From the sequence record SRR20825010_1851: 41,200 nucleotides of DNA; one strand, written 5' to 3'. Within the stretch, counting starts at the first letter, position 1. Each line of letters opens with the position of its first letter. The notes under the pieces are model-generated. The model worked only from the letters and a program-made list of their open reading frames with translations. It was not told the origin of the DNA and did no database searches. This document shows positions 8,386 through 33,139 of this stretch, piece by piece. Made by a program: the position numbers and the translations under genes.

Positions 8386-8469
8386 TACCGAGTAGTGACG
8401 GTTTTGGAGCTTGGCGTAGCGCTGTTTAATCGCTCGGATTATGCGCGCAGCGTATGTTTTTATTAGTGA

Positions 8470-8547
8470 ATGTGTGGCATAAGTGCGGCGAGTCTGAGGC
8501 GCGAGTGTGCGTGAAAGTGCGGCGGGAGTGCGGCGTAAAGTGTGGCG
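8470..8547 (+). repeat. Degenerate direct-repeat array, ~7 copies of AGTG(C/T)GGCG at ~11-12 bp period
   Basis: Exact AGTGCGGCG at 8482, 8516 and 8527; AGTGTGGCG at 8539; degenerate copies at 8470, 8491 and 8504. Confidence 0.7.
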
Positions 8548-8886
8548 GTGAGGCCGGGTAACGGAAGTCGGGATATCTGCCTGTTCAAGGCTGCTCATTG
8601 AAGCTGATGACAAGGAACTGATGTGTTTGAATCTTTATACTTTCTGTTTTTCTGTTGCTTGATAGCGTTCATTATTTATTGGGCATTGAAGAATGATGAT
8701 CAGGAAACGTTTTTGAATGGACCTGTAAAGGGTCCCAATGGAAGCGACGAGAGCGAGACATAATAGTAGTACTGTACTAATTTCTCTTGGGAATCTAACG
8801 CTTAGCAACGCAATAATCGCTTGATTTTAACCGTCTTGCCTTGGCATAGTGTACTCAAGAATACTTGGGAAGCCTTTAGGCTTATT

Positions 8887-8899
8887 AATCAAGGGTTTA
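8887..8899 (+). promoter_or_regulatory. Putative IHF-binding site upstream of second EPS block
   Basis: AATCAAGGGTTTA is an exact match to WATCAANNNNTTR. Confidence 0.35.
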
Positions 8900-8912
8900 A
8901 AGGAAGCATCAG

Positions 8913-9545: not shown

Positions 9546-9597
9546 CATTGTTATAGTATGCTGATGGCGATGGTCTGACAGACAGCGGAGGGACAAG

Positions 9598-11223: not shown

Positions 11224-11243
11224 GTGTAGTGAGTAGGTAATTC

Positions 11244-12434: not shown

Positions 12435-12446
12435 GGATCGCACTTT

Positions 12447-13919: not shown

Positions 13920-13926
13920 GGGCAGC

Positions 13927-16929: not shown

Positions 16930-16933
16930 CAGC

Positions 16934-18160
16934 ATGGCTCGTATTCTCTTTCTCGCGCACCGCATTCCTTATCCCCCTAATAAAGGGGACAAGATACGCT
17001 CCTGGCATTTTCTGGAGCATCTCGCAGCCTCCCATGATGTGCATCTGGGCTTTTATATCGATGACCCTCAGGACGAAAAGCATGTGGCCTTCCTTGAGGG
17101 GCAGGTGAAAAGCCTGTGCTTTGAGAGTGTTAGCAAAAACTGGCAGAGGGTTATGGCGCTACGAGGGCTCGTGACGGGGAAACCACTCACACTCTCTGCC
17201 TATCCAAAAGCAAAGTTGAAACGTTATGCCGAGAACCTGATCACAGCGGGCGAGATCGATATGATCTTCCTGTTCTCTGGCGCGACGATGCAGTTGGTGG
17301 AGGGCGTGAGCAACATCCCTGTTGTGGCAGACCTTGTCGATGTAGATAGCGCCAAATGGGCGGCATATGCGGGCGCGAAGCCTTGGCCTCTATCGTGGCT
17401 TTACCGTCGTGAGGCGAAGGTGCTGGCCGCCTATGAGCGCGAGATTACTTCAGAATCCGCTGCAACCCTTTTTGTGAGCAACGATGAAGCGACACTTTTC
17501 AAAAAAAAGCTGGATATAGCGCTGCACCCCAAAGTCTATGGCGTGTCAAACGGCGTCAATCTTGTGCATTTCGACCCTAAGCGCTTTAGGCAAACCAGAG
17601 CAGATGGCGAAGAACCGCCTCTCAAAGTAATCTTTACTGGCGCGATGGACTATGCGCCCAACCTTGAGGCCGCAGAGTGGTTCGTCCATAAGGTTTGGCC
17701 GAAGGTGAGGGCGGAGTGTCCTGAAGCTGAGTTTATTATTGCAGGCGGCCCGAAGACGCCTGAGGTCGCGGCCCTTGAACGCATCAGCGGCGTGAAAGCT
17801 CTCGGTTATGTGGACGATATGGCGGAAACGATAGCGGAAGCGGAGGTGGTTGTAGCGCCGCTCCTTACTGCGCGCGGTATTCAGAACAAGGTTCTTGAAG
17901 GTATGGCCATGGCGAAACCGGTACTTGCCACGCCTGCCGCCCACGAAGGCATTGCGGCGACCGCTGGCGAACATTTGGTTGTGGCGGCGGACGCGAACAA
18001 GTTTTTGGAGGCGCTTACGGTGCTTCTAAGGGACAGGGTACAGCGGGAAGCCGTTGGTGCCGCAGCCCGTCAGTTTGTTGAGGACCACCACAGTTGGCAG
18101 AGCTGCCTGTTCAAGCTTGACGATATTATTAGCCGGGTATTGGGAGCACGGAGTTTATGA
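16934..18160 (+). CDS. GT4 glycosyltransferase, XrtA system (TIGR03087-like)
   Basis: ILFLAHRIPYPPNKGDKIRS, DLVDVDSAKW, FTGAMDYAPN, ARGIQNKVLEGMAM. ATG at 16934 follows the femAB stop. Confidence 0.93.
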   Translation: MARILFLAHRIPYPPNKGDKIRSWHFLEHLAASHDVHLGFYIDDPQDEKHVAFLEGQVKSLCFESVSKNWQRVMALRGLVTGKPLTLSAYPKAKLKRYAENLITAGEIDMIFLFSGATMQLVEGVSNIPVVADLVDVDSAKWAAYAGAKPWPLSWLYRREAKVLAAYEREITSESAATLFVSNDEATLFKKKLDIALHPKVYGVSNGVNLVHFDPKRFRQTRADGEEPPLKVIFTGAMDYAPNLEAAEWFVHKVWPKVRAECPEAEFIIAGGPKTPEVAALERISGVKALGYVDDMAETIAEAEVVVAPLLTARGIQNKVLEGMAMAKPVLATPAAHEGIAATAGEHLVVAADANKFLEALTVLLRDRVQREAVGAAARQFVEDHHSWQSCLFKLDDIISRVLGARSL

Positions 18161-19704
18161 CTACAGTAGCCTCGCTATACAGTCGGTATCAACGGCTTGG
18201 CTTTTTTGCTTTGGCTTTGGCGGGGCTTTTTGCTGGTTGGTGGGACACTGTCATCCATATCGCGACCATTGTTTGGCGTGATGATACCTATAGCCATGGG
18301 CTTCTGGTGCCGCCGATCACGCTCTGGCTTATCTGGCGCCGCGTCAGCGAGGGTGGAATGCCACCAGCGCGTCTTTTCCTGCCTGCATTTGTCCTGATTC
18401 TGGGCGCCTCGTTGCTCTGGATGCTGGGGCGTGCAATGGAAGCTGGCGTGCTTGAGCATGTTGCGCTTGTTGGCGCGGTGCAGTCGCTGGTGCTGCTGGC
18501 GTTTGGTCCTGCGGTCTACCGGCAAATACTATTCCCCATGCTGTTCCTGTTTCTTGTTATCCCATTCGGCGGGGCGCTTGTTGGGCCGTTACAGAACATC
18601 ACCGCTAAATCCGTAATCTGGGCACTTGGTATTCTGGGCGTGCCTTACCAGGCAGATGGCGTGCTGATTGAGCTTTCAAGCGGGCTTTATGAGGTCGCAC
18701 GTGCTTGCGCTGGCATCAAGTTTCTGTTTACCAGCATGGTTTGCGGTGTGTTGTTGTGCCACTTGGCGCTTGCTTCATGGTGGCGCAGGGCGGTCATGCT
18801 GGTGGTGGCTTTTCTTGTGCCTATTCTTGCCAATGCAATCCGTGTGCTTTCAACTTTGTTGATCGCGGAAGCGACGGATCAGAGTTTCGCGAAAGATGTT
18901 GATCATGTTGTCTATGGCTGGGGGTTCCTGAGCGTTGTTTTACTGATCCTGATCGGTATTGCGTATCGTTTCTCAGACCGGGGAGACCAGGGTAATGAGT
19001 CGGCAGGGGAAAGCCAGCCCAAGCAGGCAATGCCCATGCTCGGTGCAAATGGTTTAGTGGCGGTGACATTTGCCATGCTGTTGCCCATTCTTTCTGGTTT
19101 CTGGATGCATCAGCCCTCAGAAGTCGTGCAACAATGCAAAGTTGCGGACGTCCAGGTGCCTACGTGTGAAGCATGTGGCTTCAGGCCGCTTCCGCGGTTT
19201 GATAACGTGGGGTATGTCGCCTATGAAGCTGCGGACGCTGAATTTCTGCATCTATACCGGGCGGGTGGGAACCGTGTCACTGTTTATGGCGCGCTTTTCC
19301 AGCCTGATCGACCAGAGCACCGGGTTATTCGGGGGTTGGAAAAAGGCCTGCAGAACGACTGGGCGGTACTTACCGGTGCACCGACGAAAAATACTGCTGT
19401 TAACAGGGTACCATTCGAGGAGACTGTGCTCTGGCGGTCTGAGAGAAAAGTACTGTTGTGGCGTGCTTATTTTGCCTCAGGCTCCTTTCATGCTGGCTCG
19501 CTGCCAACCAAGCTCGCATTAGGCAAAGCGCGCCTGTTTGGCGGCGATGCCACTGCAGCGGCATTGATCTTCTCTGTGAACATGGATGACGGCATTGAGA
19601 TTGCCCGTGAAAGGCTGACAAAATTTCTATCGACATTTTCGGCAGATCGGTTTTTATGGAGCCAGCTTAACGAGCCAGAGGGACACGCTATATGTGCGGA
19701 ATAA
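18157..19704 (+). CDS. xrtA: Exosortase A with C-terminal EpsI-like periplasmic domain
   Basis: Multi-TM protein with YSHG motif and intact catalytic triad contexts VARACAG (Cys), ANAIRV (Arg) and DHVVYGW (His), followed by a soluble C-terminal domain. Confidence 0.93.
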   Translation: MTTVASLYSRYQRLGFFALALAGLFAGWWDTVIHIATIVWRDDTYSHGLLVPPITLWLIWRRVSEGGMPPARLFLPAFVLILGASLLWMLGRAMEAGVLEHVALVGAVQSLVLLAFGPAVYRQILFPMLFLFLVIPFGGALVGPLQNITAKSVIWALGILGVPYQADGVLIELSSGLYEVARACAGIKFLFTSMVCGVLLCHLALASWWRRAVMLVVAFLVPILANAIRVLSTLLIAEATDQSFAKDVDHVVYGWGFLSVVLLILIGIAYRFSDRGDQGNESAGESQPKQAMPMLGANGLVAVTFAMLLPILSGFWMHQPSEVVQQCKVADVQVPTCEACGFRPLPRFDNVGYVAYEAADAEFLHLYRAGGNRVTVYGALFQPDRPEHRVIRGLEKGLQNDWAVLTGAPTKNTAVNRVPFEETVLWRSERKVLLWRAYFASGSFHAGSLPTKLALGKARLFGGDATAAALIFSVNMDDGIEIARERLTKFLSTFSADRFLWSQLNEPEGHAICAE

Positions 19705-21584
19705 CGGGGGTGATGATTGCGGGAGACGGCCAGGTTGATCAGGCCAGCCTGCGCCACATGACCAACCTTATCGCGCACCGTGGCCCTGATGATGACGGGT
19801 TCTTCTTTGGTGCGGGTGTCGCCTTTGGCCATCGCAGGCTGTCAATTATTGATGCGGAAGGTGGCCATCAGCCCATGTTCAGCCCAGACGAGCGTGTGGT
19901 GCTGACCTATAACGGCGAGATATATAACTTCCAGCAGCTCCGGCGTGAGTTAGAGAACCTCGGTCATCGGTTCAAAACGAGCAGCGATACGGAAGTGTTG
20001 CTTACCAGCTATCTGGAGTGGGGCGCAGACTGTGTGAACCGTTTCCGTGGCATGTTTGCCTTTGCCGTTTGGGATACTCGTACACAGGAACTGTTCCTGG
20101 CGCGGGACCGGTTGGGCATTAAACCACTTTATTACAGCACGTTACCGGATGGCACGTTCATTTTCGCGTCTGAGCTCAAGTCACTTGTGGCTTACCCTGG
20201 CATTCGGAAAAAGCTCAGGATCGATGCGCTCGAAGATTATATGGCTCTTGGTTATGTGCCTGATCCCAAATCCATACTCGACGGGTTTGACAAGCTGCCT
20301 CCCGCGCATACATTGACGGTGAACAAAGTAACTGGCCAGCAGCGCATGCGCGCTTACTGGAACTTGGATGTTGTTACCCCCGCTGTTGGTGACGAGCAGC
20401 CCGGCGAACTGATTGAGCGACTGGAGGAGGCTGTAAAGCTGCGGATGATTGCAGATGTGCCTCTCGGTTCCTTTCTCTCCGGTGGTATCGATTCAAGCAC
20501 TGTTGTTGGCTTGATGAGTCGCAACAACCCTGACCCAATTGAAACCTGCGCTATTGGCTCTGATGATCCGCTGTTTGATGAAAGTGGCCATGCACAGCTG
20601 GTATCAGACCATTTTGGCACGCACCACCGGCTTCGCCTTGCTTCCGCACGGGACGGGGAACTGATTGATACGATGGCAGAGGTGTATGACGAGCCTTTTG
20701 CCGATATGTCGGCGCTTCCGACCTACAGGGTCTGCGCACTGGCGCGAGAAAAGGTAAAAGTTGCACTTTCAGGTGATGGCGGCGATGAGCTTTTCGCCGG
20801 ATATCGCCGTTACCGTTTCCATATGATGGAAGAGGAATTGCGCTCACGCGTGCCGCTCGCGATCCGGCGGCCGATATTCGGCGCTTTAGGTGCCATTTAT
20901 CCCAAATTGGACCGTGCGCCGCAGTTCCTGCGCGCGAAATCTACCTTTGAGGCACTGGCACGTACCTCGGCTGAAGCTTATTGCCAATCTGTCAGCAAAA
21001 CGCCGGATAGTGTGCGCCTGAGGCTTTATACTCAGAAGATGCACAACCGCCTGTTTGGATACCACCCGCATGACCGCTTTAAGAAGTTGGCGGCAGAAGT
21101 GCATGGGGCCCACCCGCTTTCCGTTGTGCAGTATATAGATTTCAAGACTTATCTGCCGGGGGACATTCTGACCAAAGTAGACCGGGCGAGCATGGCGCAC
21201 TCACTTGAAGTGCGCGTACCGCTTCTCGACCATAAGTTTGTTGAGTGGGGGCTTCGGCTGGACCCTGAAAGCAGGATTAGGGACGGCGTTGGCAAGGCAG
21301 TGTTCAAGGATGCTGTGCGCGGTATATTGCCGGATGCTATTATCGACCGACCGAAAAAGGGCTTTGATATCCCGATGGCGAGCTGGCTGAGGGCAGAGCT
21401 TGCACCTGAGCTTGCCAAGCTGCAGCAGAGTGAACGGCTTCTTGACCTGGGTGTGTTTGACCGTAAGGCGCTCGGGAAACTTGTTGATGAGCATCTGACA
21501 GAGAAAAGGGACCACCATACCAGTCTGTGGTCCCTCATTATGCTTGATAAAAGCCTTGAGCGGCTGGATGTAAGCTACAGCTAG
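19692..21584 (+). CDS. Asparagine synthetase-like glutamine amidotransferase, XrtA system (TIGR03108-like)
   Basis: MCGI N-terminal nucleophile, HRGPD, GHRRLSIID, NGEIYN, LSGGIDSS, SGDGGDELF, KVDRASMAHSLEVRVP. Confidence 0.95.
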   Translation: MCGITGVMIAGDGQVDQASLRHMTNLIAHRGPDDDGFFFGAGVAFGHRRLSIIDAEGGHQPMFSPDERVVLTYNGEIYNFQQLRRELENLGHRFKTSSDTEVLLTSYLEWGADCVNRFRGMFAFAVWDTRTQELFLARDRLGIKPLYYSTLPDGTFIFASELKSLVAYPGIRKKLRIDALEDYMALGYVPDPKSILDGFDKLPPAHTLTVNKVTGQQRMRAYWNLDVVTPAVGDEQPGELIERLEEAVKLRMIADVPLGSFLSGGIDSSTVVGLMSRNNPDPIETCAIGSDDPLFDESGHAQLVSDHFGTHHRLRLASARDGELIDTMAEVYDEPFADMSALPTYRVCALAREKVKVALSGDGGDELFAGYRRYRFHMMEEELRSRVPLAIRRPIFGALGAIYPKLDRAPQFLRAKSTFEALARTSAEAYCQSVSKTPDSVRLRLYTQKMHNRLFGYHPHDRFKKLAAEVHGAHPLSVVQYIDFKTYLPGDILTKVDRASMAHSLEVRVPLLDHKFVEWGLRLDPESRIRDGVGKAVFKDAVRGILPDAIIDRPKKGFDIPMASWLRAELAPELAKLQQSERLLDLGVFDRKALGKLVDEHLTEKRDHHTSLWSLIMLDKSLERLDVSYS

Positions 21585-21604: not shown

Positions 21605-22294
21605 TTACATCCGGCTGTCGAGTGCGTAACCCGCAGAGCGAACCGTGCGGATATAGTCACTGGTGCTGTCAAAGTTCATGGCTTTACGCAAGCGACGAAT
21701 GTGTACGTCCACAGTGCGTGGTTCCACATAGACATCATGGCCCCAGACACTGTCGAGCAGTTGCTCACGCGAGAAAACACGGCCGGGGTTTTCCATGAAG
21801 TGCCGGAGCAGCCGATATTCTGTTGGGCCAAGGTGCACGAGCGCATCACCTCGGGTAACCCGATGGGATACATTATCAAGCACGATATCTTCAAAGCGAA
21901 GCTGTTGGCCAGCAAGGGCAGGGCGTACCCTGCGGAGCACAGCCTGAATGCGCGCAATAAGTTCCTTTGGTGAGAACGGCTTGACGATATAGTCGTCGGC
22001 ACCGGTCTCAAGCCCGCGAATACGGTCAGGTTCATCTGCGCGCGCGGTCAGCATTATAATAGGAACGTTTGCCGTTTCTGTATTACGGCGAAGCTGGCGA
22101 CAGATCTCAAGGCCGGAAAGGTTTGGCAGCATCCAGTCAAGCAGGATGATGTCTGGCGCTTCCTGTGTTGCGCGGTAAAGGCCATCTTCGCCATCGGCTA
22201 CGGCTTCAACGGTATAGTCAGCACGTTCGAGGTTGTAACGCACAAGCTCGGTGATGCTCTCATCATCTTCGATCAATAAAACACGGGTCTTCAC
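21605..22294 (-). CDS. phoB: Phosphate regulon response regulator PhoB
   Basis: Receiver domain LLDWMLP, GADDY, LGPTEYRLL, RTVDVHIRRLRK; lies in the pst operon. Confidence 0.97.
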   Translation of the reverse strand: MKTRVLLIEDDESITELVRYNLERADYTVEAVADGEDGLYRATQEAPDIILLDWMLPNLSGLEICRQLRRNTETANVPIIMLTARADEPDRIRGLETGADDYIVKPFSPKELIARIQAVLRRVRPALAGQQLRFEDIVLDNVSHRVTRGDALVHLGPTEYRLLRHFMENPGRVFSREQLLDSVWGHDVYVEPRTVDVHIRRLRKAMNFDSTSDYIRTVRSAGYALDSRM

Positions 22295-22320
22295 TGGGCT
22301 TTGCCTCCGATAACCAAACG

Positions 22321-23031
22321 TTATTTCTCTTCAACCAGCTCGGTGCTGGTGAAATCCTGTTTGGGGCGCCGGGCATCTTCGAGCATGATCCCGGTTATGG
22401 TGTAATAAACTTGTTCTGCGATATTGGTTGCCTGATCGCCGATACGTTCGAGGTTCTTTGCGATCATCAGGAAGTGGGTCAGCGCACCAATCTGGCTTGG
22501 GTTTTCCATCATACGTGCAAGGATTTGCCGGTAAGCAGCGTTGTGGAGGTTATCGAGCGCTTCGTCACGTTCCCAAACCTCCATCGCGGCTTCCGCATCG
22601 CGGTGCACAAAGCTGTCCATCACATCCTGGATCATACGGCGGGCTTCGCCGCTCATCTGTTCCAGAAGAGGGGGCATGACAACAGGCGCCCCTTCCGTGA
22701 CGGCAAGTGTGCGCTTGGCGATGTTTTTGGCATAGTCACCAATACGTTCGATAATGCCGGTCATCTTGAGAGCCGCAATCACCTCACGCAGGTCGTCTGC
22801 CACCGGTGCGCGGCGGGCGAAAACGCCAATAGCCGTACGCTCAGCTTGCAGCTCAAGCTGGTCGAGCGCTTTATCGCTGCTGCGCACATGCCATGCGCCG
22901 TCAACGTCACATTCCTTGAGTGCCTTCATCGCGGCAACGAGCTGTTCTTCTGCGAGGCCGCCCATGCGGCTCACAATACTGCGCAGCTCTTTCAGTTCGT
23001 CGTCGTAGGCTTTTACAATGTGGTCATTCAT
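22321..23031 (-). CDS. phoU: Phosphate signalling protein PhoU
   Basis: HIVKAYDDEL, PVADDLR, ERIGDYAKNIAKR, KNLERIGDQATNIAE. Confidence 0.97.
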   Translation of the reverse strand: MNDHIVKAYDDELKELRSIVSRMGGLAEEQLVAAMKALKECDVDGAWHVRSSDKALDQLELQAERTAIGVFARRAPVADDLREVIAALKMTGIIERIGDYAKNIAKRTLAVTEGAPVVMPPLLEQMSGEARRMIQDVMDSFVHRDAEAAMEVWERDEALDNLHNAAYRQILARMMENPSQIGALTHFLMIAKNLERIGDQATNIAEQVYYTITGIMLEDARRPKQDFTSTELVEEK

Positions 23032-23042
23032 GTCAATTTGTC

Positions 23043-23843
23043 CTAACCGAAGCGGCCAGTAATATAGTCGCGGGTGCGCTCTTCTTTGGGCGCTGTGAAT
23101 ATTTGCGTTGTATCGCCGTGTTCCACAAGGTCACCCATGTGGAAGAAGGCGGTTTTCTGCGAGATGCGCGCCGCCTGCTGCATGCTGTGCGTCACGATGA
23201 TAATGGCGTAGCGGCCCTTAAGTTCATCGATCAGGGCTTCTACTTTTGCAGTGGCGATCGGGTCGAGGGCAGAGCAAGGCTCATCCATCAGGATCACCTC
23301 AGGGTTCACAGCAATGGCGCGCGCAATACAAAGGCGCTGTTGCTGGCCACCAGATAGTGCGGTACCCGGGCTATCAAGTCTGTCTTTTACCTCTGCCCAC
23401 AACCCGGCTTTTTCGAGTGCCACGGCAACAATCTCATCAAGGTCGGCGCGTTCACGGGCGAGGCCATGGATACGAGGACCGTAGGCGATATTATCATAGA
23501 TCGACTTCGGGAAAGGGTTCGGTTTCTGGAAAACCATGCCAACCCGGGCGCGTAGTTGCACCACATCGATCTGCGGATCGTAGATATCGTCTCCATCCAA
23601 TGTGATTTTACCTTCAACCCGGCAGCTTGCTACCGTATCGTTCATCCGGTTCAAACAGCGCAGGAAGGTTGATTTTCCACAGCCAGAAGGGCCGATCAGC
23701 GCGGTGACCTCATCACGGTAGAGATCAAGAGAAATGCCTTTTACCGCGTGATTGTCAGCATAAAAAACATTCACGTCTTTAGCGGCCATTTTGGGCGTAC
23801 GAGGTTCTGTCATTGCGTCCACTTTTGTTGCCATATCAAGCAT
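23043..23843 (-). CDS. pstB: Phosphate ABC transporter ATPase PstB
   Basis: [47 protein letters not shown]. Start set at the ATG just after the pstA stop. Confidence 0.97.
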
Positions 23844-23844
23844 C

Positions 23845-25161
23845 TTACCACTGCCGTTCAAATTTTTGACGGAGCCAGATAGCCACCCCGTTCATCGAAA
23901 TAAGGAATGCCAGCAGCACCATAATAGCGGCTGACGTTTTTTCTACAAATGCCCGTTCAGGACTATCTGCCCAAAGGAAGATCTGAACCGGCAGCGCAGT
24001 CGCTGCGTCAGAGAATCCTCCTGGGATATCAACAATAAAGGCCACCATGCCAATCATCAGCAGTGGTGCTGTCTCACCAAGGGCCTGTGCCATACCAATA
24101 ATCGTGCCTGTAAGGATGCCAGGCATCGCAAGCGGCACCACATGGTGGAAAACCACCTGCATGGGCGATGCGCCCAACCCGCGGGCTGCATCACGAATGG
24201 ACGGAGGTACAGCCTTGATGGAGGCGCGGGAGGCGATAATGATGGTTGGTAGTGTCATAAGCGCCAGTGTCAGGCCACCAACGAGCGGGGCCGAGCGTGG
24301 CAGGTGCATGACACCCAGGAAAACCGCAAGCCCAAGCAGGCCAAACACAATTGAGGGCACAGCCGCCAGGTTGTTGATGTTGATCTCAATAATATCGGTG
24401 AGGCGGTTTTGCGGCGCAAACTCCTCAAGGTAAATTGCCGTCAGCACCCCAATAGGGAAGGCGATGAGTAGTGTTACGACCAAGGTTAAAGCTGAGCCCA
24501 CGGTTGCGCCCCATATGCCTGCAAGCTCAGGATCGCGAGAATCGCCGTTCGTAAAGAAGGCAAAGTGGAAATTCAGCGATACGCGGTCTTCTTCAAAAAG
24601 TTTCTGATACCAGCCAAGCTCTTTGTCTTTCACCTTACGGTTACTTTCCGGCAGGCTGGCGTCGATTTTACCCTTGCGAAGCTGATCGATGTCATCGGCG
24701 GCAAGAATGCGCACACGCTTGGTCGAGCCTACAATCGCAGGCGTTTCAAGGACCATGTTGCGCAGTTGCTCGCGTGCGCCGCCGCTAATCATGCGGAGAA
24801 GGGCGCGGCGATCCCTGCGGCTCTCAACTTCGGGGAAATAATCTGTGAGCGAGGCGTCAATGACCCGGATCATATTGGCTTTTCGAACACTTTCTTCGAA
24901 CGCTTTGGCATCCATGGCGCGCGGGTCACCTAGAATTTCAGCGCTAAAGGTAATGTCGAGGTCGAGGCTTGTCTGCATGAAACCCATGGAGCCATCGCGC
25001 ACAATTTTGCCGATAAGGAGAAACAGGAACATGGAAGCCATCGCGATGGCAAAAATGCCGAGATAACGGAAATTGCGGTCGCGACGATAGCGGCGGCGAA
25101 TACGCGCCTTCATCTCGGGCGATTTCCAGTTGGTTGGTTCAAACTCTGTGGCGTTAGACAT
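23845..25161 (-). CDS. pstA: Phosphate ABC transporter permease PstA
   Basis: [32 protein letters not shown]. Confidence 0.96.
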
Positions 25162-25172
25162 AGATACCAGCC

Positions 25173-26558
25173 TTAATCATATGCTTCGCGGTACTTGCGT
25201 ACGATGCGAAGTGCAAAAACATTGAGCGCCATGGTGGAAATAAAGAGCGCAAGACCAAGGGCGAAGGCCGACAGCGTTTTGGCGCTATCAAACTCCTGGT
25301 CGCCGGTCAGAAGTGCAACAATCTGTACGGTAACGGTGGTTACGGCCTCAAACGGGTTGGCGGTTAGGTTTGGCTGCATACCTGCGGCCATCACCACGAT
25401 CATGGTTTCACCAACCGCGCGGCTTACAGCCAGGAGGAAAGCCCCCACGATACCCGGGAGCGCTGCAGGCAGCAGCACGTTCACGATTGTTTCAGAACGG
25501 GTTGCACCAAGAGCGAGCGAGCCGTCCTTGAGTGAGTTGGGAACCGCCGTAATTGCATCATCAGAAAGCGATGATACAAACGGGATAATCATGATGCCCA
25601 TCACAAAGCCTGCTGCGAGCGCGCTTTCACTGGCAATTTCAACACCGATGAAATCGCCTGCGTCCCGGAAGAACGGAGCGACGGTGAGGGCGGCAAAGAA
25701 GCCGTATACAACAGTTGGCACACCAGCGAGTACTTCAAGGACTGGTTTCGCGATTTTGCGGACCCGAGAGCTTGCGTATTGTGTCAGATAGATTGCCGAA
25801 AAGAGACCGATGGGCCCGGCAACCATCATGGCGAGGAAGCTGATGAGAAGGGTGCCAGCAAACAGTGGTACCGCGCCAAACGCGCCCGCTGCGGCAACCT
25901 GGTCGGCGCGCAGGGCTGTTTGGGGGCTCCAGTGCAAGCCAAAGACAAAATCAACGACTGAGATTTCCTGAAAGAAGCGCAGGCTTTCAAACAGTAGCGA
26001 GGCAACGATTCCGATTGTGGTTACAATCGCGATCACAGAACTCAGCACCAGCATCACAGTCATCACACGCTCAAAAGAATTGCGCGCGCGGAAGTCTGGT
26101 GAAGTTTTGTTGGTCGCGAAGAAAATACCGATCAGGCCGAAGGCAACTGAAAGCGCAAACGCTGCCCATATACCCTTTAGGTACAAGGCGTGAAAGTGTT
26201 GGGCCGCGGCTAAAATGTCCGGGTTTTTCTCGTTGCCGCCTGAATTCTCAACAGCGAGCCGGATACGGTTCAAAATCAGGTTGGCTTGTTCTTGATACTG
26301 CGCCGCCAGATTGTCGGGCAGGCCTGAAATCATCAGGCCCTCAATGATATTTTTGCCAAAAATGACCCAGGCTAGAAAGACAGCCAAGCCAGGGATTAGC
26401 GCGCAAACAGCAGCATAGTAGCCATAATGCCGGGGAAGGCTGTGGAGTTTGGATGTATCGCCCGACACCGATGCAAGCGACCGCTGACGCACGGTAGCAA
26501 AGGCAATAATTGCCAGTAGAACGATGGTCAGGAAAATGGCGGCACTCGTCATCGTCAT
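25173..26558 (-). CDS. pstC: Phosphate ABC transporter permease PstC
   Basis: LAGVPTVVYGFFA, SLALGAT, SRAVGETMIV. Confidence 0.96.
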   Translation of the reverse strand: MTMTSAAIFLTIVLLAIIAFATVRQRSLASVSGDTSKLHSLPRHYGYYAAVCALIPGLAVFLAWVIFGKNIIEGLMISGLPDNLAAQYQEQANLILNRIRLAVENSGGNEKNPDILAAAQHFHALYLKGIWAAFALSVAFGLIGIFFATNKTSPDFRARNSFERVMTVMLVLSSVIAIVTTIGIVASLLFESLRFFQEISVVDFVFGLHWSPQTALRADQVAAAGAFGAVPLFAGTLLISFLAMMVAGPIGLFSAIYLTQYASSRVRKIAKPVLEVLAGVPTVVYGFFAALTVAPFFRDAGDFIGVEIASESALAAGFVMGIMIIPFVSSLSDDAITAVPNSLKDGSLALGATRSETIVNVLLPAALPGIVGAFLLAVSRAVGETMIVVMAAGMQPNLTANPFEAVTTVTVQIVALLTGDQEFDSAKTLSAFALGLALFISTMALNVFALRIVRKYREAYD

Positions 26559-26604
26559 CAGCCTCTACTCGTGCCGCTAACTATATTCGGCACTGATTTG
26601 GTGG

Positions 26605-26645
26605 TTTGGGACGACAACAAGCTTAAGGGCTGTAACCGTCCCAAA
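26605..26645 (-). other. Intercistronic stem-loop between pstS and pstC (likely mRNA stabiliser/attenuator)
   Basis: Inverted repeat TTTGGGACG (26605-26613) / CGTCCCAAA (26637-26645), with further G-U pairing inside on the minus-strand RNA. Confidence 0.65.
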
Positions 26646-26658
26646 GTGGATTTTTACC

Positions 26659-27729
26659 TTAGTCCAGAGAGAGGTTTGTCAATGCTGCTGCATCATCAGC
26701 AAACTTTTGACGCTCTTCCTCTGAAAGCGGGATCAGGCCACGATCAGTGAGGTAGCCAAAGTCACCCCAAGCTTTGTCGCTTGTAAACTCGCCAAGATAC
26801 TCACGGATACCCGGTACCACGTCAACATGCGCTTTCTTCACATAAAAGTAGAGTGAACGCGAGATTGAGTAGCTGCCTTCCGAGATGGCTTCGAATGTGG
26901 GTTCAACCGCATCGGCGCCTTCCCCCACAGGGTAGGCTTTGATGGCATCTGCGTTTTGGTCAAGGAAGCTGAAGCCAAATACACCGATTGCTTCGTTGTT
27001 AGCTTGCAGCTTTTGAACGATGAGGTTGTCGTTCTCGCCGGCTTCCACATAAGCACCGTCTTCGCGGATACCACGGCAATAAGCTTTGTATGCATTGCCG
27101 TCTGAAGATTTGAGGGCTTTCATGCCTTCGAAAGTCTTACACCCTGCTTCGATCGCCAACTCGTTGAACGCGTCACGCGTACCGGAGGTTGGGGGAGGAC
27201 CGAGAACCACGATTGGCCGGTTTGGCAAGCTTGCGTTTACATCAGCCCATGTTTTGTATGGGTTGTCGATCATGTTGCCAGCGCCGCCTTCAGTGCCGGG
27301 CGCAGGTACCTTTGCAGCCAAGGCGAGGTAAAGTTCGCGTAGGGAGATCGTCATGTCAGGCGCGCTTTTGTCTGCTGCCAGAACGATACCGTCAAAACCG
27401 ATCTTTACTTCTACGACGTTTGTAACGCCGTTTTTTGCGCAAAGGTCCACCTCAGACTGCTTGATACGACGTGAGGCGTTGGTGATGTCCGGGTGGTTAG
27501 TGCCGATGCCGGAGCAGAACAGTTTCAAACCGCCACCGGAACCTGTTGATTCGACGATGGGGGTTTTAAAGGTTGAAGTCCGCCCGAATTCTTCCGCCAC
27601 AGCTGTGGAGAAGGGAAATACGGTCGAGGATCCAACGATACGGATCTGGTCCCGCGACTGGGCTTGAGCGCCCGAAGATGCAAAAAGGGCTGCCCCAGCA
27701 ACGGCAGCCACAAAAGCGAATTTTTTCAT
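26659..27729 (-). CDS. pstS: Phosphate ABC transporter substrate-binding protein PstS
   Basis: Signal peptide MKKFAF...AQA, VGSSTVFP, ESTGSGGGLKLFC, GPPPTSGTRD; GGAGA RBS precedes ATG at 27729. Confidence 0.96.
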   Translation of the reverse strand: MKKFAFVAAVAGAALFASSGAQAQSRDQIRIVGSSTVFPFSTAVAEEFGRTSTFKTPIVESTGSGGGLKLFCSGIGTNHPDITNASRRIKQSEVDLCAKNGVTNVVEVKIGFDGIVLAADKSAPDMTISLRELYLALAAKVPAPGTEGGAGNMIDNPYKTWADVNASLPNRPIVVLGPPPTSGTRDAFNELAIEAGCKTFEGMKALKSSDGNAYKAYCRGIREDGAYVEAGENDNLIVQKLQANNEAIGVFGFSFLDQNADAIKAYPVGEGADAVEPTFEAISEGSYSISRSLYFYVKKAHVDVVPGIREYLGEFTSDKAWGDFGYLTDRGLIPLSEEERQKFADDAAALTNLSLD

Positions 27730-27846
27730 GTCAGTTTCTCCAGGCCACATTCTCGCGGCAATAACTCTGGTTCCTGTGTTGCTGGACCACTCTAGCTCAT
27801 GATTGTTTAGCTTTTATGCCAGCAGGCGTAGGCTTACGCGTGGAAT

Positions 27847-27864
27847 GTTACAGGAAAATGACAC
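27847..27864 (-). promoter_or_regulatory. Pho box upstream of pstS
   Basis: Minus strand GTGTCAT-TTTC-CTGTAAC fits the CTGTCAT-N4-CTGTCAT 11-bp direct repeat. Confidence 0.75.
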
Positions 27865-29153
27865 TATGAATTTTCGTCTTTCTTTTGCGGTATAGGCAAC
27901 TTGAAGCTGAAAACTGTACCCTTGCCAAGTTGACTTTTGATATCGAGCCCACTGTTGTGCCGGAGAAGGATATGTTTCACGATTGCTAATCCGAGACCGG
28001 TTCCCCCCATCTTGCGTGAACGCGCGGTGTCAACACGGTAGAAACGCTCTGTAAGACGTGCCAGATGTTCCTGTGCAATACCGGGGCCTTCGTCGGTGAT
28101 CGATAGCAGGGCGTGCTTGCCCGTACGGCCCACTTCCGCTTTTACATGTACCTTGGTGTTAGGGTCAGAATATTTGGCGGCGTTCGTCAAAAGGTTAAGG
28201 AAAACCTGGGTTATTTGATCACTGTCGGCAACAACGTCCTGCACATTTTCTTCGTGCTCATAGGTAAACTCTACGCCTCGTTCAGCTGCGATTCCCTTGA
28301 CGGAATTTATGACGCTTCCGACAAGTTTATTGATGTCAGTGACAGCATTTGGCGCCATATAGCGTGTCATCTCAATACGAGAGAGCGAGAGCAGGTCATC
28401 GATCAAACGGACCATACGCTCGGCTTCGGTTTGCATGATGCCAAGGAAGCGCTTGTGGGCATCCAAATCACCAACCGCAGGACCTCGAAGTGTTTCAATG
28501 AAGCCTAAAACGGAGGTGAGCGGGGTGCGAAGCTCATGGCTTGCGTTTGCAACAAAGTCTGCCCGCATGCGTTCGGTTCGTAACAAACTTGTCACTTCAT
28601 AGAAATATACGATCGCACGCACGCCATCGTTCATTTTTTTGCCAGCCAGCACGGGGGCAACGGTTACATCGAAGCTGCGTTCCTTGCTAGTGGTGTAGCG
28701 GATAACGCCAAAGTCCCCAAAGCGGCCCTCAAGGATGTTATCCAGCGCTGTCACAAAGTTTGACTGGCGCAGGTAAAGAAACACCTCATTGCCATCAATA
28801 TCAGTGCCCAACAGCTCCCGCGCAGATTCGTTTGCGAAGGCTATTTTCTTGTCCGCGTCTACTAGCAAGAGAGGGGAAGGCAGTCTGTCAAGCGCGCTGG
28901 CACCTAAAAGTACAGACGTTCCGGTCTTGGATTTTCGTTTCTCGCGGATCGCAGAACGGCGGTTTTCCAAGCGTTCCATGCGGCGCTTTATCTCAAGCTG
29001 TAACAAAAATGCGACAGCCACGGCGCCAACAAAAAAGGCACCAACAAACGTGACTTGTCCGACAGACCACATCAGCGCCAGTGTGAAGATTACAGCGGCG
29101 ACAGTGGATCTCTCCGTCAGGAGGCCTTGATACTCTTTAAAGGGTTCGTTCAT
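27864..29153 (-). CDS. phoR: Phosphate regulon sensor histidine kinase PhoR
   Basis: TM segments, PAS domain, H-box DFVANASHELRTPL, NLLTNAAKY, ERFYRVD...GGTGLGLAIVKH. Confidence 0.95.
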   Translation of the reverse strand: MNEPFKEYQGLLTERSTVAAVIFTLALMWSVGQVTFVGAFFVGAVAVAFLLQLEIKRRMERLENRRSAIREKRKSKTGTSVLLGASALDRLPSPLLLVDADKKIAFANESARELLGTDIDGNEVFLYLRQSNFVTALDNILEGRFGDFGVIRYTTSKERSFDVTVAPVLAGKKMNDGVRAIVYFYEVTSLLRTERMRADFVANASHELRTPLTSVLGFIETLRGPAVGDLDAHKRFLGIMQTEAERMVRLIDDLLSLSRIEMTRYMAPNAVTDINKLVGSVINSVKGIAAERGVEFTYEHEENVQDVVADSDQITQVFLNLLTNAAKYSDPNTKVHVKAEVGRTGKHALLSITDEGPGIAQEHLARLTERFYRVDTARSRKMGGTGLGLAIVKHILLRHNSGLDIKSQLGKGTVFSFKLPIPQKKDENS

Positions 29154-29242: not shown

Positions 29243-29260
29243 GTTGCACTTTTGTGACAT
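29243..29260 (-). promoter_or_regulatory. Probable Pho box upstream of phoR
   Basis: Minus strand ATGTCAC-AAAA-GTGCAAC resembles the Pho box direct repeat. Confidence 0.55.
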
Positions 29261-29422: not shown

Positions 29423-30214
29423 GTGGACGATCAAAAACAGGATACCAGTGATTTTATGGAGCGCCGCCGCCAGCTGTTGAAGCTTGGTGCTGCGGGCATG
29501 CCCATGATCCTGACGCTGAAAGCATCAGCCAACCAGACCATACATTCGGCCCTTGACTGTGTGTTCCAGCTTAGCTCTGCCGTTAATATCCTTGTGGACC
29601 ATGAGGGCAAGGTTTGGGTTGGCAGTAGCACGATCGATCAAGGTTCGGGCGGCACACTGAAAACCAGTGACATTGCCAGCTTTAAAAGCAACGCGGATTT
29701 TGCCTTCCCTGCAGGCACAGCACCGGGCGATTATGTTCCCGATGAATGCCCTGACGACCCATGCGACGGTGACAGCAGTGGCGATTGGGATGATGACGAC
29801 TGGTATTTCGGCGGTAGCGGGCGCGACCTGCTGCAGGAGCTGATGGATAGTGGCAGTATTTCGTCGTTCAGTGGCAAAGGCAAAGGCAAGAGCGACGACG
29901 ACGACGATGACGACGGCTGTGGCAGCAGCGACGACGACGACGATGACGACGATGATTGGGATGATGATGACGGGGGCTCGAGCGGTTCCAGCAGCACTTG
30001 GACCGAGTGCGGCTACAATTATTACGAAATTACTGCCAACACCACAATTACCCCGCTCGACTATCTGAACGGTAACGGTGATTGGCAGATCAGTGGTACC
30101 AATGGTCTCTATATCGTGCTCGGCGCTAAATATCTGGATTACTACGGTAACGATGGTGGTTTCCCTGGTATATCGTGCTTGCACTCGATCCTGACCTATC
30201 TAGAGACATCATAA
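29423..30214 (+). CDS. Twin-arginine-leader, six-Cys, Asp/Ser/Gly-rich protein; putative substrate of the downstream RRE/kinase/nucleotidyltransferase
   Basis: GGAGG RBS at 29409-29413; leader RRRQLLKLGAAGMPMILTLKASA; SALDC; poly-Asp tracts; C-terminal GISCLHSI; first gene of a tightly coupled four-gene run. Confidence 0.85.
   Translation: MDDQKQDTSDFMERRRQLLKLGAAGMPMILTLKASANQTIHSALDCVFQLSSAVNILVDHEGKVWVGSSTIDQGSGGTLKTSDIASFKSNADFAFPAGTAPGDYVPDECPDDPCDGDSSGDWDDDDWYFGGSGRDLLQELMDSGSISSFSGKGKGKSDDDDDDDGCGSSDDDDDDDDDWDDDDGGSSGSSSTWTECGYNYYEITANTTITPLDYLNGNGDWQISGTNGLYIVLGAKYLDYYGNDGGFPGISCLHSILTYLETS
29891..29951 (+). repeat. Perfect 25-bp direct repeat / GAC microsatellite encoding Ser-(Asp)7
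   Basis: AGCGACGACGACGACGATGACGACG at 29891-29915 and 29927-29951. Confidence 0.9.
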
Positions 30215-30230
30215 AGGCGCCCAATAGTCG

Positions 30231-30554
30231 ATGCCGCAGGGCGACAAGATATATAATGATGACAGATGGCTTTGGTATGCTGACCAGAGCCATTTTTCTG
30301 TCGAGGCGCTGGGCGACATCAGTTATGTCTATTGCCGCCGGTCTGGCAGCACACATGTGTTCAACCTCGTTTCCATTGAAATGCTGCAATATCTCACTAT
30401 CGCTCCGCGCCGTGTGTCTGAACTTGTTGAGGCCTTCCCTTCTATACTGGGTGTTTCACGCGAGGAATGCCCGCGCGGGTTTGTGAAACGCATCTTTGCG
30501 GAGCTGGATGACGCAGGCCTTTTGACAGCGCGCGCTGCTGGGGGCAAGCCATGA
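30231..30554 (+). CDS. PqqD-family RiPP recognition element (HPr-rel-A system type, TIGR04353-like)
   Basis: 107 aa; three-strand/three-helix pattern with VYCRRSGSTHVFN and C-terminal ELDDAGLL; sits directly before the HprK-like kinase. Confidence 0.85.
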   Translation: MPQGDKIYNDDRWLWYADQSHFSVEALGDISYVYCRRSGSTHVFNLVSIEMLQYLTIAPRRVSELVEAFPSILGVSREECPRGFVKRIFAELDDAGLLTARAAGGKP

Positions 30555-31480
30555 GCCTGACACCTCTCGAGGCGCTTGGGCGCGACAAGATCACTGCGGC
30601 ATTGAAGGCGGGGCATTTGAACTTGCACCTCGGGCCTTTTGTCACATCCCTGAAGAGTCGAAGCGACCTTGTGGCGGATTTCCTTATGGATACCTACCGC
30701 GATTGCCCAGTGAGCGTGGACGCCGATGAACTGGTTGATTATGTGCTGTCTGTCGGGCCACCGAACAGGCTTCGGCGTTTTATTCGACCACAGGTATTGC
30801 CTGACCCCGGATTTTATTTCCCTGCCATCCCGCTGCCTGCACGCATGGCCGCTCTTGCGCTTGAAATGGGTATGAACCTGAGCGCGGCGTTGCAATGTTT
30901 TCGTTTCACCATGTTTCACGCCGGTGTGGTGGCAAAGGACGACAAAGCAATCATGATTGCAGCGAACTCCGGCGGCGGGAAAAGCACATTGACGGCTGCG
31001 ATGATGGAACAGGGTTTTCGCTTGCTGTCAGATGAATTTGCAGTATTACGCCGCGATGGGCTGGGCTTGATGCCTTACCCGCGGCCGGTATCGCTCAAAA
31101 AAGCATCGGTAGATATTGTGCGGGCTTTTGCAGGCGATGACGCCGTTAGCCCCGCGCTTGAGGGCACACCGAAGGGCACTGTGGCATATAGGCGCGCGCG
31201 GGCAAGCGATATTGCCGCGATGGCGCAGCCAGCCGAGCCCAAGCTTATTGTCTTCCCGAAATTTGAGGCTGAAGCTGAAGCCTCGGTTGAGCCTGTTGAG
31301 CCTGCTGACGCACTGATGCGGCTGATAGCGGGTTCCCCCAACTATCAGGTGATTGGTGAAGACGCATTCCGCTCAACCTTGCAGATGATGCAGGGCGTGA
31401 AGTCGTTTGAAATCACCTATGGCAATACGGAAGACAGTATTCGTCTTGTTGAGAGCCTTTGGGCTGAGGCCGCGCCATGA
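30551..31480 (+). CDS. HprK-related kinase A (TIGR04352-like)
   Basis: FHAGVV, P-loop AANSGGGKSTL, RLLSDEF, PRPVSLK, GTPKGTVAY; ATGA overlap with the PqqD gene. Confidence 0.9.
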   Translation: MSLTPLEALGRDKITAALKAGHLNLHLGPFVTSLKSRSDLVADFLMDTYRDCPVSVDADELVDYVLSVGPPNRLRRFIRPQVLPDPGFYFPAIPLPARMAALALEMGMNLSAALQCFRFTMFHAGVVAKDDKAIMIAANSGGGKSTLTAAMMEQGFRLLSDEFAVLRRDGLGLMPYPRPVSLKKASVDIVRAFAGDDAVSPALEGTPKGTVAYRRARASDIAAMAQPAEPKLIVFPKFEAEAEASVEPVEPADALMRLIAGSPNYQVIGEDAFRSTLQMMQGVKSFEITYGNTEDSIRLVESLWAEAAP

Positions 31481-32487
31481 AGCCTGCCTTCTTCAAAAGT
31501 GCTGTTGGGTTAAGGCCTTTTCCTGAGGAGCGGGGAGAGCTGAACGCTTTTGTGCGTTGGGCCGGACGCGGGCATATCATGGGGCAGGTTGCCGCTGCAC
31601 ACGAGGGTGAAGCCACAGGTAAGCTCAAAGACATTGTTGAAAACGCGCGCATCCGCAGCGCACATGACCGTCGCATGCTGGAGTTTGAAGCCGGGCGTAT
31701 CCGTCGTGCGTTACTGGGCAGCGGTATTGAGCCGGTTATCCTCAAGGGCAGCGCTTATGTGGCCAAGGGCCTGAGAGCCGGACGAGGCAGGCGCGTGAGT
31801 GATATCGATATTCTGGTACCTGAAGTATATATCACGAAGGTGGAAGAATTGCTCACGGTTGCGGGCTGGCAGCCCGAGCTGACAACAGCCAGCAATTATG
31901 ACCAGCAGTATTACCGCAAATGGATGCATGAACTGCCACCCATGCGCCACAGCAAGCGCCGCACGCTGGTTGATGTGCACCACAGGCTTTTGCCGCGCAC
32001 GGCGCGTTTGCAGCCTGACCATCTGGCGATAGTTGATACCGCCGTGCCAATAGGCGAGATGGGCGTGAAAACCTTCGCGCCGCGTGACCTCTTCATCCAC
32101 TCTGCCATCCATATCTTTGCAGACGGTGCGCTAGAGACCCCGGCGCGCAGCCTGATTGAGCTTTATTACCTGTTTGACGACCTAAACGCGGACGAGCGCC
32201 GCACGTTGGTACACCGCGCAGCGGAAGTAGGTGCCATAAAACCGGTGCGTGCGGCCCTTTGGGCGGTGGGTCGCTATTTTGATGATGCGCAGGCCCATGT
32301 TGTGCTGAAATCCATCGGGCCGTGGCGTATGGGGTTTGTGCTAAGGGCTTGTGTGAAAACACTGGTGGCTGAAAACGGCTTTGTACCGTTTGCCAAACTG
32401 GCGCTTTATATCCGTAGCCATTATATGCGCATGCCGCTTGGCCTGCTGATCAGCCACCTTTTCAAGAAAGCTACGCGGCGTAGCTGA
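31477..32487 (+). CDS. Nucleotidyltransferase (NTP_transf_5/PF14907-like)
   Basis: VILKGSAY, GRRVSDIDILV (DxD), YDQQYYRKWMHELPP, VDVHH, YIRSHYMRMP; ATGA overlap with the kinase gene. Confidence 0.88.
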   Translation: MKPAFFKSAVGLRPFPEERGELNAFVRWAGRGHIMGQVAAAHEGEATGKLKDIVENARIRSAHDRRMLEFEAGRIRRALLGSGIEPVILKGSAYVAKGLRAGRGRRVSDIDILVPEVYITKVEELLTVAGWQPELTTASNYDQQYYRKWMHELPPMRHSKRRTLVDVHHRLLPRTARLQPDHLAIVDTAVPIGEMGVKTFAPRDLFIHSAIHIFADGALETPARSLIELYYLFDDLNADERRTLVHRAAEVGAIKPVRAALWAVGRYFDDAQAHVVLKSIGPWRMGFVLRACVKTLVAENGFVPFAKLALYIRSHYMRMPLGLLISHLFKKATRRS

Positions 32488-33139
32488 CAAGCTCCGGCAG
32501 CTCAGAGAGGCCGCTGATCACTCTGTCTGCCCCCAACTCATGCGGGGCGACGTCGGTATAGCCAAAATCAACCGCCACAGAGGGTGCTTTTGTAGCGCGC
32601 GCAGCAGCAATATCATTGATGCTGTCACCCACCATGAGGAAAGTACCATCGCCGTGCATTTGTGCCGCTGTTGCCAGCAGGTGCCTGGGGTCAGGTTTTT
32701 TAAACGCGAAGCTGTCTCCGCCTGTAACCGCATCAAAATAATGGTTGACCCTCAATGCCTTGAGGAGCGGTTCTGTTAGCGTCATCGGCTTGTTGGTGCA
32801 TATGGCAAGCGAAAATCCTTTGGCTTTGAGCGTTTCGAGCATCTCAACGCCGCCTTCAAACACGTGGGTGTCATCGGCGATATGCGCGCGGTAATAGTCG
32901 AGAAACACAGGCAATAGTTCAGCTGGGTCATGATTTTCCATGCCCCCTGTGGCTTCAAGACCCAGTTCGATCAGGCGCTTGGCGCCGAAGCCCACCATGT
33001 GACGCACTTGTTCAAGCGTCACGTGCGGCCGGTTCACATGCGCGAGCACATGGTTTGTGGCGGCATATAGGTCTGGCGCGCTCTCGATAAGGGTACCGTC
33101 AAGGTCAAAAATGATCTTCTGGACATTAAAGATGCTCAA
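32471..33139 (-). CDS. gph: Phosphoglycolate phosphatase (HAD family)
   Basis: FDLDGTL, CTNKP, KKPDP, MVGDS..D motifs; 3' end overlaps the nucleotidyltransferase gene by 17 bp. Confidence 0.88.
   Translation of the reverse strand: MSIFNVQKIIFDLDGTLIESAPDLYAATNHVLAHVNRPHVTLEQVRHMVGFGAKRLIELGLEATGGMENHDPAELLPVFLDYYRAHIADDTHVFEGGVEMLETLKAKGFSLAICTNKPMTLTEPLLKALRVNHYFDAVTGGDSFAFKKPDPRHLLATAAQMHGDGTFLMVGDSINDIAAARATKAPSVAVDFGYTDVAPHELGADRVISGLSELPELVSYAA

Follow-up and report, generated by a model that had tools for sequence, protein, structure and literature searches.

Which protein do the enzymes of the HPr-rel-A system modify? For this system the NCBIfam catalogue describes an HprK-related kinase (TIGR04352) and a PqqD-family 'peptide chaperone' (TIGR04353) and names no substrate model, and we found no published substrate. 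The question is posed by a stretch of 41,200 nucleotides from sequence record SRR20825010_1851 (the window; all positions are counted from its first letter), in which both genes lie in a four-gene cassette together with a nucleotidyltransferase gene and, at the upstream end, the gene of a 263-residue protein with a twin-arginine leader, here termed the precursor. Judging from the sequences, this first gene likely encodes the missing substrate of the system. We consider it fairly probable that the four genes constitute a maturation module of the type known from RiPPs (peptides made by the ribosome and altered after translation), with the precursor as the substrate, which would be exported by the twin-arginine translocation (Tat) pathway once modified. 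If this is true, the logic of guidance by a RiPP recognition element (RRE) extends to whole Tat-exported proteins, as a new coupling of covalent modification to Tat export, and the XrtA/PEP-CTERM system of biofilms and flocs, itself poorly understood, gains a link to a phosphoprotein.

A four-gene cassette around an HprK-related kinase

In the open reading frame (ORF) listing of the window, the cassette occupies positions 29423–32487. All four genes lie on the plus strand and are tightly coupled: a gap of 16 bp (30215–30230) separates the precursor gene (29423–30214) from the PqqD gene, and ATGA overlaps of 4 bp each join the PqqD gene to the kinase gene (30551–30554) and the kinase gene to the nucleotidyltransferase gene (31477–31480). 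These coordinates agree exactly with the original prediction, which had been made by a model from the sequence alone. The precursor gene starts with GTG, and a GGAGG lies 8 nt 5' of this start. The PqqD-family protein (107 aa, 30231–30554, plus strand), annotated as an HPr-rel-A system peptide chaperone and RRE protein, scores 36.9 bits against TIGR04353 PqqD_rel_X (cut-off 35). HprK-related kinase A (309 aa, 30551–31480, plus strand) reaches 246.5 bits against TIGR04352 HprK_rel_A (cut-off 200), with profile positions 1–280 aligned, so that both proteins are members of the catalogued system. The nucleotidyltransferase (336 aa, 31477–32487, plus strand) gives 124.3 bits with Pfam family PF14907 (NTP_transf_5; cut-off 31.2). 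The three family assignments suggested beforehand were thus borne out, and the precursor protein itself matched no family in Pfam or NCBIfam.

NCBIfam annotation of the 30 other window ORFs of at least 100 aa placed no protease, signal peptidase or ABC exporter gene in or beside the cassette, and neither a lasso cyclase nor a B2 leader protease was found in the cassette or its flanks; for the cassette the original prediction had stated the same. A signal peptidase I-like (SpI-like) leader peptidase and an MsbA-like exporter were likewise absent among all 34 window ORFs of at least 100 aa; the sole ABC transporter of the window is the phosphate importer pstSCAB. No protease or pump was conserved beside the cassette in the flanks of 12 non-alphaproteobacterial or otherwise distant loci either. 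This pattern fits the use of the general Tat and signal peptidase machinery.

Conservation of the precursor gene

Of 41 related genomes, 34 have a TIGR04352 match over its cut-off, among them all 25 of the genus Kordiimonas. For comparison at the level of the order we took 20 loci from 10 families and set aside L022, whose contig begins 359 bp before the kinase gene. An ORF of 121–295 aa with an RR leader adjoins the PqqD gene on the cassette strand at 19 of 19 of the others. Because the gene order recurs at every one of them and widely beyond, the arrangement is not due to chance. One locus (L015) has two paralogous precursor genes (3465–3926 and 4295–4873), one on either side of the PqqD gene.

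A scan with a kinase profile, restricted to one genome per species, yielded at least 592 relatives among 599 candidates, which makes the HPr-rel-A trio widespread, and the best 80 loci were kept. These belong to Kordiimonadales, Emcibacter, Sphingomonadales, Pelagibius/Denitrobaculum, Magnetococcales, Methylococcaceae, Lentisalinibacter, Thiospirillum, Oleiphilaceae, Rhodocyclaceae and others. A hidden Markov model (HMM) of the leader, trained on 18 order-level sequences, matched at E < 1e-3 in 67 of the 80 loci (about 12 of the 80 are Kordiimonas near the training set), once per locus and always just upstream on the kinase strand. Seven of the 13 unmatched loci have less than 1100 bp of upstream DNA, four carry another core behind a similar RR leader, and two have none. 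A precursor is therefore present in 71 of the 73 wider loci with room for one, and the loci that bear it span Alpha-, Beta- and Gammaproteobacteria. The original prediction had hinged on a conserved upstream partner; the order-level and the wider loci both supply it. In L113 a mini-precursor follows the nucleotidyltransferase gene instead of lying upstream. Among 1.84 billion representatives, a profile of 53 precursor sequences matched 1495 clusters at E ≤ 1e-3; 169 of them reach E ≤ 1e-10 and three E ≤ 1e-30. It is this conserved and recognizable family that makes the function of the trio testable. At the level of sequence the four genes form a real, conserved module, whose mechanism we infer below.

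The four unmatched loci with another core (L053, 1185–1793; L073, 2399–3082; L082, 306–899; L109, 2434–3207) and L116 (2319–2876) share a second, unrelated core family of about 200–260 aa, which in some Gammaproteobacteria and others takes the place of the precursor behind the same type of RR leader. Its marks are a Cys directly after AxA, the stretch SG-x-LSGN and the motif [ST]PGYW or PEYW.

The leader of the precursor

The window leader (residues 1–36, 29423–29530, plus strand) reads ERRRQLLKLGAAGMPMILTLKASA/NQ, with signal peptidase predicted to cut after A36. An n-region precedes R14-R15-R16-Q-L-L-K, the h-region LGAAGMPMILTL and the c-region K-A-S-A. The Tat-type motif is E-R-R-R-Q-L-L-K, the h-region is only mildly hydrophobic, and the c-region is basic and ends in AxA. 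Across the 53 aligned sequences the consensus is RRxLLxxGAxxxPxxxT, then AxA (or AWA), with R15 conserved at 91%, R16 at 100%, L19 at 92%, G22 at 89%, A23 at 87%, P27 at 72% and T31 at 83%. The leader is the best conserved segment of the protein (mean identity to the commonest residue 0.59 vs 0.21 in the mature halves). The mean hydropathy of the h-region is 1.66, at least 36 of the 53 sequences have K or R in the c-region, and 52 of the 53 lack an acidic residue between the RR and the cleavage region. The nearest genome encodes TatC (208.6 bits, cut-off 132.7).

The same data could describe a leader that is read by the RRE and only resembles a Tat signal, the product being processed and exported by unlinked proteins or staying in the cell. 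Its conservation lies far above what an ordinary signal peptide needs, matches to Tat-signal HMMs are only marginal, and the linear polyphosphorylated peptide (LPP) clusters compared below use a dedicated SpI-like peptidase and an ABC pump (PMC13381572). We nevertheless think this improbable. Neither a peptidase nor a pump accompanies the cassette across loci, the leader shows all the features of a Tat signal in its sequence (RR, mild h-region, basic c-region, AxA), TatC is at hand in the nearest genome, and a near-invariant Cys pair in the core suits an extracytoplasmic disulfide. We prefer a model where the N-terminus of the precursor is a Tat signal peptide that doubles as the recognition leader.

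The RRE, the kinase and the nucleotidyltransferase

An AlphaFold2 model of the PqqD-family protein (predicted local distance difference test, pLDDT, 90; predicted TM-score, pTM, 0.81) has a winged-helix architecture with strands at residues 22–27, 30–35 and 40–44 and helices at 46–57, 62–73 and 82–94. In Foldseek the top match was TbiB1 with its leader (5v1v_A; E 3.5e-3, prob 1.00, TMt 0.68), and the other RRE matches in the PDB include TruD, MibB, LynD, TigE, ThcOx, the lasso B1 protein 6jx3, MccB and PqqD 5sxy, all of these matches having E-values above 1e-3. On the model, the window protein has the RRE fold. Its sequence profile found nothing related among PDB sequences, the best match being TcaR at E 0.02.

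The kinase residues H123, S140–T146 and D161–E162 are invariant among 14 sequences; S140-GGGKST-T146 is the P-loop (30968–30988, plus strand). Searched against PDB sequences, the kinase profile matched only the HprK/P catalytic core of 1ko7 (E 0.0016). In the nucleotidyltransferase, G91, D109 and D111 are invariant together with 39 other columns among 15 sequences, and the Asp pair of the G91...D109-x-D111 motif lies at 31801–31809 (plus strand). To judge by the alignments, the catalytic motifs of both enzymes are intact. The nucleotidyltransferase gene follows the kinase gene on the same strand in 78 of the 80 loci. In L096 (Magnetococcales) a TPR-sulfotransferase gene (4418–6112; PF13469, 155.8 bits) stands between the two.

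Candidate modification sites and the precursor core

Two motifs stand out in the core. The first, S42-A-L-D-C46 (29546–29560, plus strand), is a Ser-x3-Cys whose Ser lies six residues after the predicted cleavage site. In 47 of the 53 sequences a Ser precedes the first Cys by four or three residues (position −4 or −3), the first Cys itself (C46 column) is 98% conserved, and the spacing from the RR to this Cys is 29–33 residues in most of them. The second, S251-C252-L-H-S255 (30173–30187, plus strand), belongs to a [ST]CxxS motif near the C-terminus that is present in 47 of the 53, with C252 conserved at 92% and S255 at 98%. The RRQLLK leader, SxxxC and SCxxS elements read out of the 263-aa protein by the original prediction are all there, and the RRxLL...P...T leader, Ser-x3-Cys and C-terminal [ST]CxxS patterns, for which it had asked across homologous loci, recur in the alignment.

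A lipobox has the form [LVI][ASTVI][GAS]C. The residues before the first Cys (A-L-D in the window, V-L-N or V-M-T in most homologues) do not fit it, and a lipoprotein reading of this Cys was rejected.

Both conserved Ser residues lie 3–4 residues from a near-invariant Cys (S42/C46 and C252/S255), a spacing that would also suit a transient phosphorylation, in which phospho-Ser is converted to dehydroalanine and captured by the Cys as a thioether, as in class III/IV lanthipeptides. We regard this chemistry as highly improbable here, for the core has no lyase or cyclase domain, and the HprK-type kinases of lasso and LPP systems are described as leaving stable phosphates (PMC13381572; PMC8498205). 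For the cassette we favour a stable phosphate, with the Cys pair in a disulfide.

The AlphaFold2 model of the precursor (mean pLDDT 72.5, pTM 0.61) reaches pLDDT 87–97 at residues ~45–115 and 190–263. Between these two predicted folded halves lies an acidic poly-Asp/Gly/Ser low-complexity insert (residues ~116–190, 29768–29992, plus strand) with pLDDT below 50, which varies in length among Kordiimonas in the alignment and is missing from the short forms of other orders. Behind the same leader, the core is ~227 aa in Kordiimonas and down to ~35–100 aa elsewhere; across the family core size runs from ~35 aa (L113, L115, L117) to ~260 aa. The original prediction had spoken of a folded protein rather than a peptide. 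For the Kordiimonas core, with its predicted folded segments, this stands; for the short cores of other groups it does not. Searches with the modelled fold of the mature protein gave nothing better than E 1.1 in Foldseek against the PDB and a best Z of 3.1 (rmsd 3.3, 61 residues aligned) in VIA-align over 48,161 chains. No fold can be assigned from these model-based searches, and neither novelty nor a difference in fold follows from them. The ESM Atlas clusters nearest to the precursor (scores 0.93, 0.90 and 0.89) are all annotated 'hypothetical protein'; in an entry at 0.80, 11% of the members carry the family of the methylamine dehydrogenase light chain.

Compared with the corresponding locus of the nearest genome (G001, locus L023), the window has 29 mismatches and one 6-bp indel over 10,843 aligned bases. 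The indel and 25 of the 29 mismatches fall within the precursor gene (window positions 29545–30076), with four mismatches in the other ~10 kb, and the PqqD, kinase, nucleotidyltransferase, HAD and DAHP synthase genes or proteins are identical between the two. The changes in the precursor gene are mostly synonymous (four amino-acid changes and a Gly-Lys indel). To judge by this distribution, it looks as if recombination had brought in a short tract that does not extend beyond the precursor gene.

Proposed mechanism

We propose that the cytoplasmic PqqD-family RRE binds the leader and presents the precursor to the HprK-related kinase, which would phosphorylate a conserved Ser, perhaps more than once. 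Among the candidate sites S42 is the likeliest, with S251 and S255 of the [ST]CxxS motif as alternatives; S42 is favoured by analogy with Ser3 of LppA in the LPP system. By analogy with the chemistry of pseudomycoidin, the PF14907 nucleotidyltransferase would then extend the phosphate by a hexose or by a group derived from a nucleotide. Once modified and folded, the protein would be exported via Tat, housekeeping signal peptidase would cut after A-S-A36, and a disulfide between C46 and C252 would probably arise beyond the cytoplasm. The cell envelope or the matrix is the most likely place of action of the product, in concert with the XrtA/PEP-CTERM exopolysaccharide system. As to the upstream protein being the substrate, as originally predicted, conservation of the partner speaks for it and makes the substrate role likely.

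Several observations weigh against this proposal. All support for members of the family consists of sequences and models. The 80 loci are those that a kinase profile centred on Kordiimonas matched best, not a random sample, and two of them (L063 and L086) have room upstream and no recognizable precursor. The 53-sequence alignment was built from ORFs that match the leader HMM, so the conservation of the leader is somewhat inflated by this selection. Of the two Tat-signal HMMs, both short models, TIGR01409 found three of the 18 precursors searched with E ≤ 1 (0.08 for the best), PF10518 found one of 18 (0.095), and neither matched the window precursor itself. Leader binding had been named beforehand as a check on the RRE: the fold agrees, and the predicted complex of the PqqD protein with precursor residues 1–62, made from single sequences and not from alignments, gives weak support, with a score of 0.58 vs 0.00 for the best of three controls (runs 0.60, 0.57 and 0.58; contact agreement at least 73%; partner pLDDT at least 57). 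The mark for this score is reached by 51 of 78 solved complexes and by 2 of 108 mismatched pairs, with scores of 0.60 or less it is reached by only five of those 78, a range in which all four mismatched pairs that passed out of 180 (harder ones included) also lie, and since RRE–leader complexes have already been solved, the pass may come from likeness to these. Lasso peptide kinases target a C-terminal Ser, and the precursor family has no conserved C-terminal Ser. Finally, deletion of the LPP nucleotidyltransferase LppN is reported to have no detectable effect on the LPP peptide, so that the second modification is unproven even in the closest characterized relative, and the main text of that paper does not state whether LppN belongs to PF14907 (PMC13381572).

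At the two loci without a recognizable precursor other genes lie nearby. Both have the PqqD, kinase and nucleotidyltransferase genes. Close to these, L063 has a divergent 456-aa gene without a Pfam match and a PsiE gene. In L086, ORFs of 174 and 213 aa beside the cassette read by eye as a sigma-factor/anti-sigma pair.

Relationship to known systems

Literature searches returned no description of the cassette system and no use of the names TIGR04352, TIGR04353, HPr-rel-A or HprK-related kinase. By analogy the closest published system is that of the LPP clusters known from Bacillota (Popov et al., Nat Commun 2026, PMC13381572), a lasso-free precedent of which the original prediction made no use. 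As described there, these clusters lie in capsule or polysaccharide loci and encode a discrete RRE, the HprK-like kinase LppK, the NTP transferase LppN, the SpI-like peptidase LppS and an MsbA-like pump. Guided by the discrete RRE, LppK loads Ser3 of the core with as many as four phosphates, the precursors are 35–200 aa long, the dedicated peptidase removes the leader, and export is through the ABC pump. With this description the cassette shares the set of RRE, HprK-like kinase and NTP transferase without lasso machinery, a conserved N-terminal leader before variable cores, a Ser a few residues past the leader cleavage site, leader removal of the signal peptidase I type (predicted for the cassette) and a polysaccharide-locus setting. 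It differs in having no peptidase or pump of its own. The LPP leader, YxxPxVLxHQ, contains a [Y/W]xxP RRE-binding motif, whereas the cassette leader, with RRxLLxxGAxxxPxVxT as consensus, is a twin-arginine one with no aromatic residue three before the Pro; the hosts are Proteobacteria rather than Bacillota, and cores reach ~260 aa. By this comparison it looks as if the cassette shares the enzyme logic of LPP, with the Y/WxxP leader, the peptidase and the pump replaced by an apparently genuine Tat signal.

In the phosphorylated and phosphoglycosylated lasso peptides (paeninodin, pseudomycoidin), according to the account in PMC8498205, a Ser of the precursor receives its phosphate from a homologue of HPr kinase and a nucleotidyltransferase adds a hexose to this phosphate, in agreement with the chemistry named in the original prediction. 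These systems resemble the cassette in the kinase homologue, the nucleotidyltransferase and a B1-type RRE. They have in addition a cyclase, a B2 protease and a C-terminal Ser target, none of which is found in the cassette.

The proposed double role of the leader also has counterparts. Tat proofreading chaperones such as TorD, DmsD and NapD are small cytoplasmic proteins that bind the twin-arginine signal and hold their substrate until maturation is done. They have other folds and wait for cofactor insertion, whereas in the cassette an RRE would do the binding, and maturation would consist in the covalent modification of a side chain. Bufferins are RiPP precursors whose leader is a Sec signal peptide; they differ from the cassette in their MNIO enzymes, their chemistry and the Sec export route.

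Genomic context

Upstream of the cassette the window contains a complete XrtA/PEP-CTERM exopolysaccharide locus (2956–21581, plus strand), every member of which is over its NCBIfam cut-off: EpsB_2, PrsT, export and chain-length proteins, a Tyr kinase, a deacetylase, FemAB, stp1, exosortase A and an amidotransferase. The association recurs, and was not part of the original prediction. Among 301 evenly drawn Alphaproteobacteria, the kinase was found over cut-off in 18 and XrtA in 36; 13 have both, five the kinase only, 23 XrtA only and 260 neither (odds ratio 29; Fisher p 6.5e-10, which overstates the link because relatives are not independent). The set includes two unpublished genomes, G247 among the 13 with both and G073 among the 260 with neither. 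Two of the five kinase-only genomes have an exosortase below cut-off, at 206.5 bits in G230, where a contig end cuts it, and at 180.3 bits in G062. In another five genomes with the cassette, four from Sphingomonadales and one from Lentisalinibacter, XrtA was over cut-off without exception. The L113 cassette lies inside an XrtA locus, where it is flanked by the export protein and the chain-length determinant; XrtA-type amidotransferases and a GT4 flank L115, and glycosyltransferases flank the cassette in L114, L084, L096 and L098. The XrtA/PEP-CTERM locus is likely the functional context of the cassette. In L096 the glycosyltransferases are upstream and an Asn-synthase-type gene is downstream.

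This context would also suit a scheme where the Tat protein is a co-regulated partner and not the substrate, the enzymes acting on an exopolysaccharide glycan, a lipid-linked intermediate or PEP-CTERM proteins, with the PqqD protein only tethering or timing them. The XrtA figures (13 of 18 kinase-positive vs 23 of 283 kinase-negative genomes, and the five further cassette genomes), the embedded L113 cassette, the glycosyltransferase and Asn-synthase-type genes flanking L084, L096, L114 and L115, and the silent LppN deletion reported for LPP (PMC13381572) all agree with it. Against it, PqqD/RRE domains bind peptide leaders, and the top fold matches of the window protein are RRE–leader complexes; it is the leader rather than the core that is conserved, and it is common to two unrelated core families; and the homologous kinases characterized so far are reported to phosphorylate an RRE-bound precursor (PMC13381572; PMC8498205). 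We judge this scheme unlikely and retain the precursor as the candidate substrate.

The only Asn-synthase-type gene of the window is the XrtA amidotransferase (19692–21581), 9 kb from the cassette. It was rejected as a lasso cyclase: it scores 868.9 bits against TIGR03108 (cut-off 816.9) and 249.5 against NF033535 (cut-off 525).

A more specific version of the proposed mechanism can be offered only tentatively. The RRE may read the Tat signal in the manner of a Tat proofreading chaperone and so couple export to (poly)phosphorylation and phospho-linked glycosylation or nucleotidylation; the modified, acidic product could then be a dedicated matrix or priming component of the XrtA/PEP-CTERM system, and in Kordiimonadales and Sphingomonadales it might come under Pho-regulon control through the promoter region shared with phoR.

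The genes phoB-phoU-pstBACS-phoR lie between the XrtA locus and the cassette (21608–29153, minus strand), and phoR is divergent upstream of the cassette in 45 of the 80 loci. The Pho-box pattern TGTCAYN5TGYMAY, with at most one mismatch, occurs five times in the window vs 2.4 expected, and 9 of 100 shuffles reach five; the count is not significant, and the sites are kept as a positional lead only. Pho-box-like direct repeats are seen on the minus strand upstream of pstS (TGTCAT-TTTCC-TGTAAC, 27847–27863) and of phoR (TGTCAC-AAAAG-TGCAAC, 29243–29259). The latter overlaps GTGACA (29254–29259), the −35 hexamer in the one match to a sigma-70-like promoter that faces the cassette, and other loci have similar repeats in this intergenic region.

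Downstream of the cassette follow a gph-type phosphatase, DAHP synthase II and nadE. The gph-like HAD phosphatase gene (32471–33139) is convergent with the cassette and over the phosphoglycolate phosphatase cut-off (192.3 vs 180). It was rejected as a fifth member: a convergent HAD gene lies downstream in 38 of the 80 loci and is missing from the other 42, and we regard its position as synteny only.

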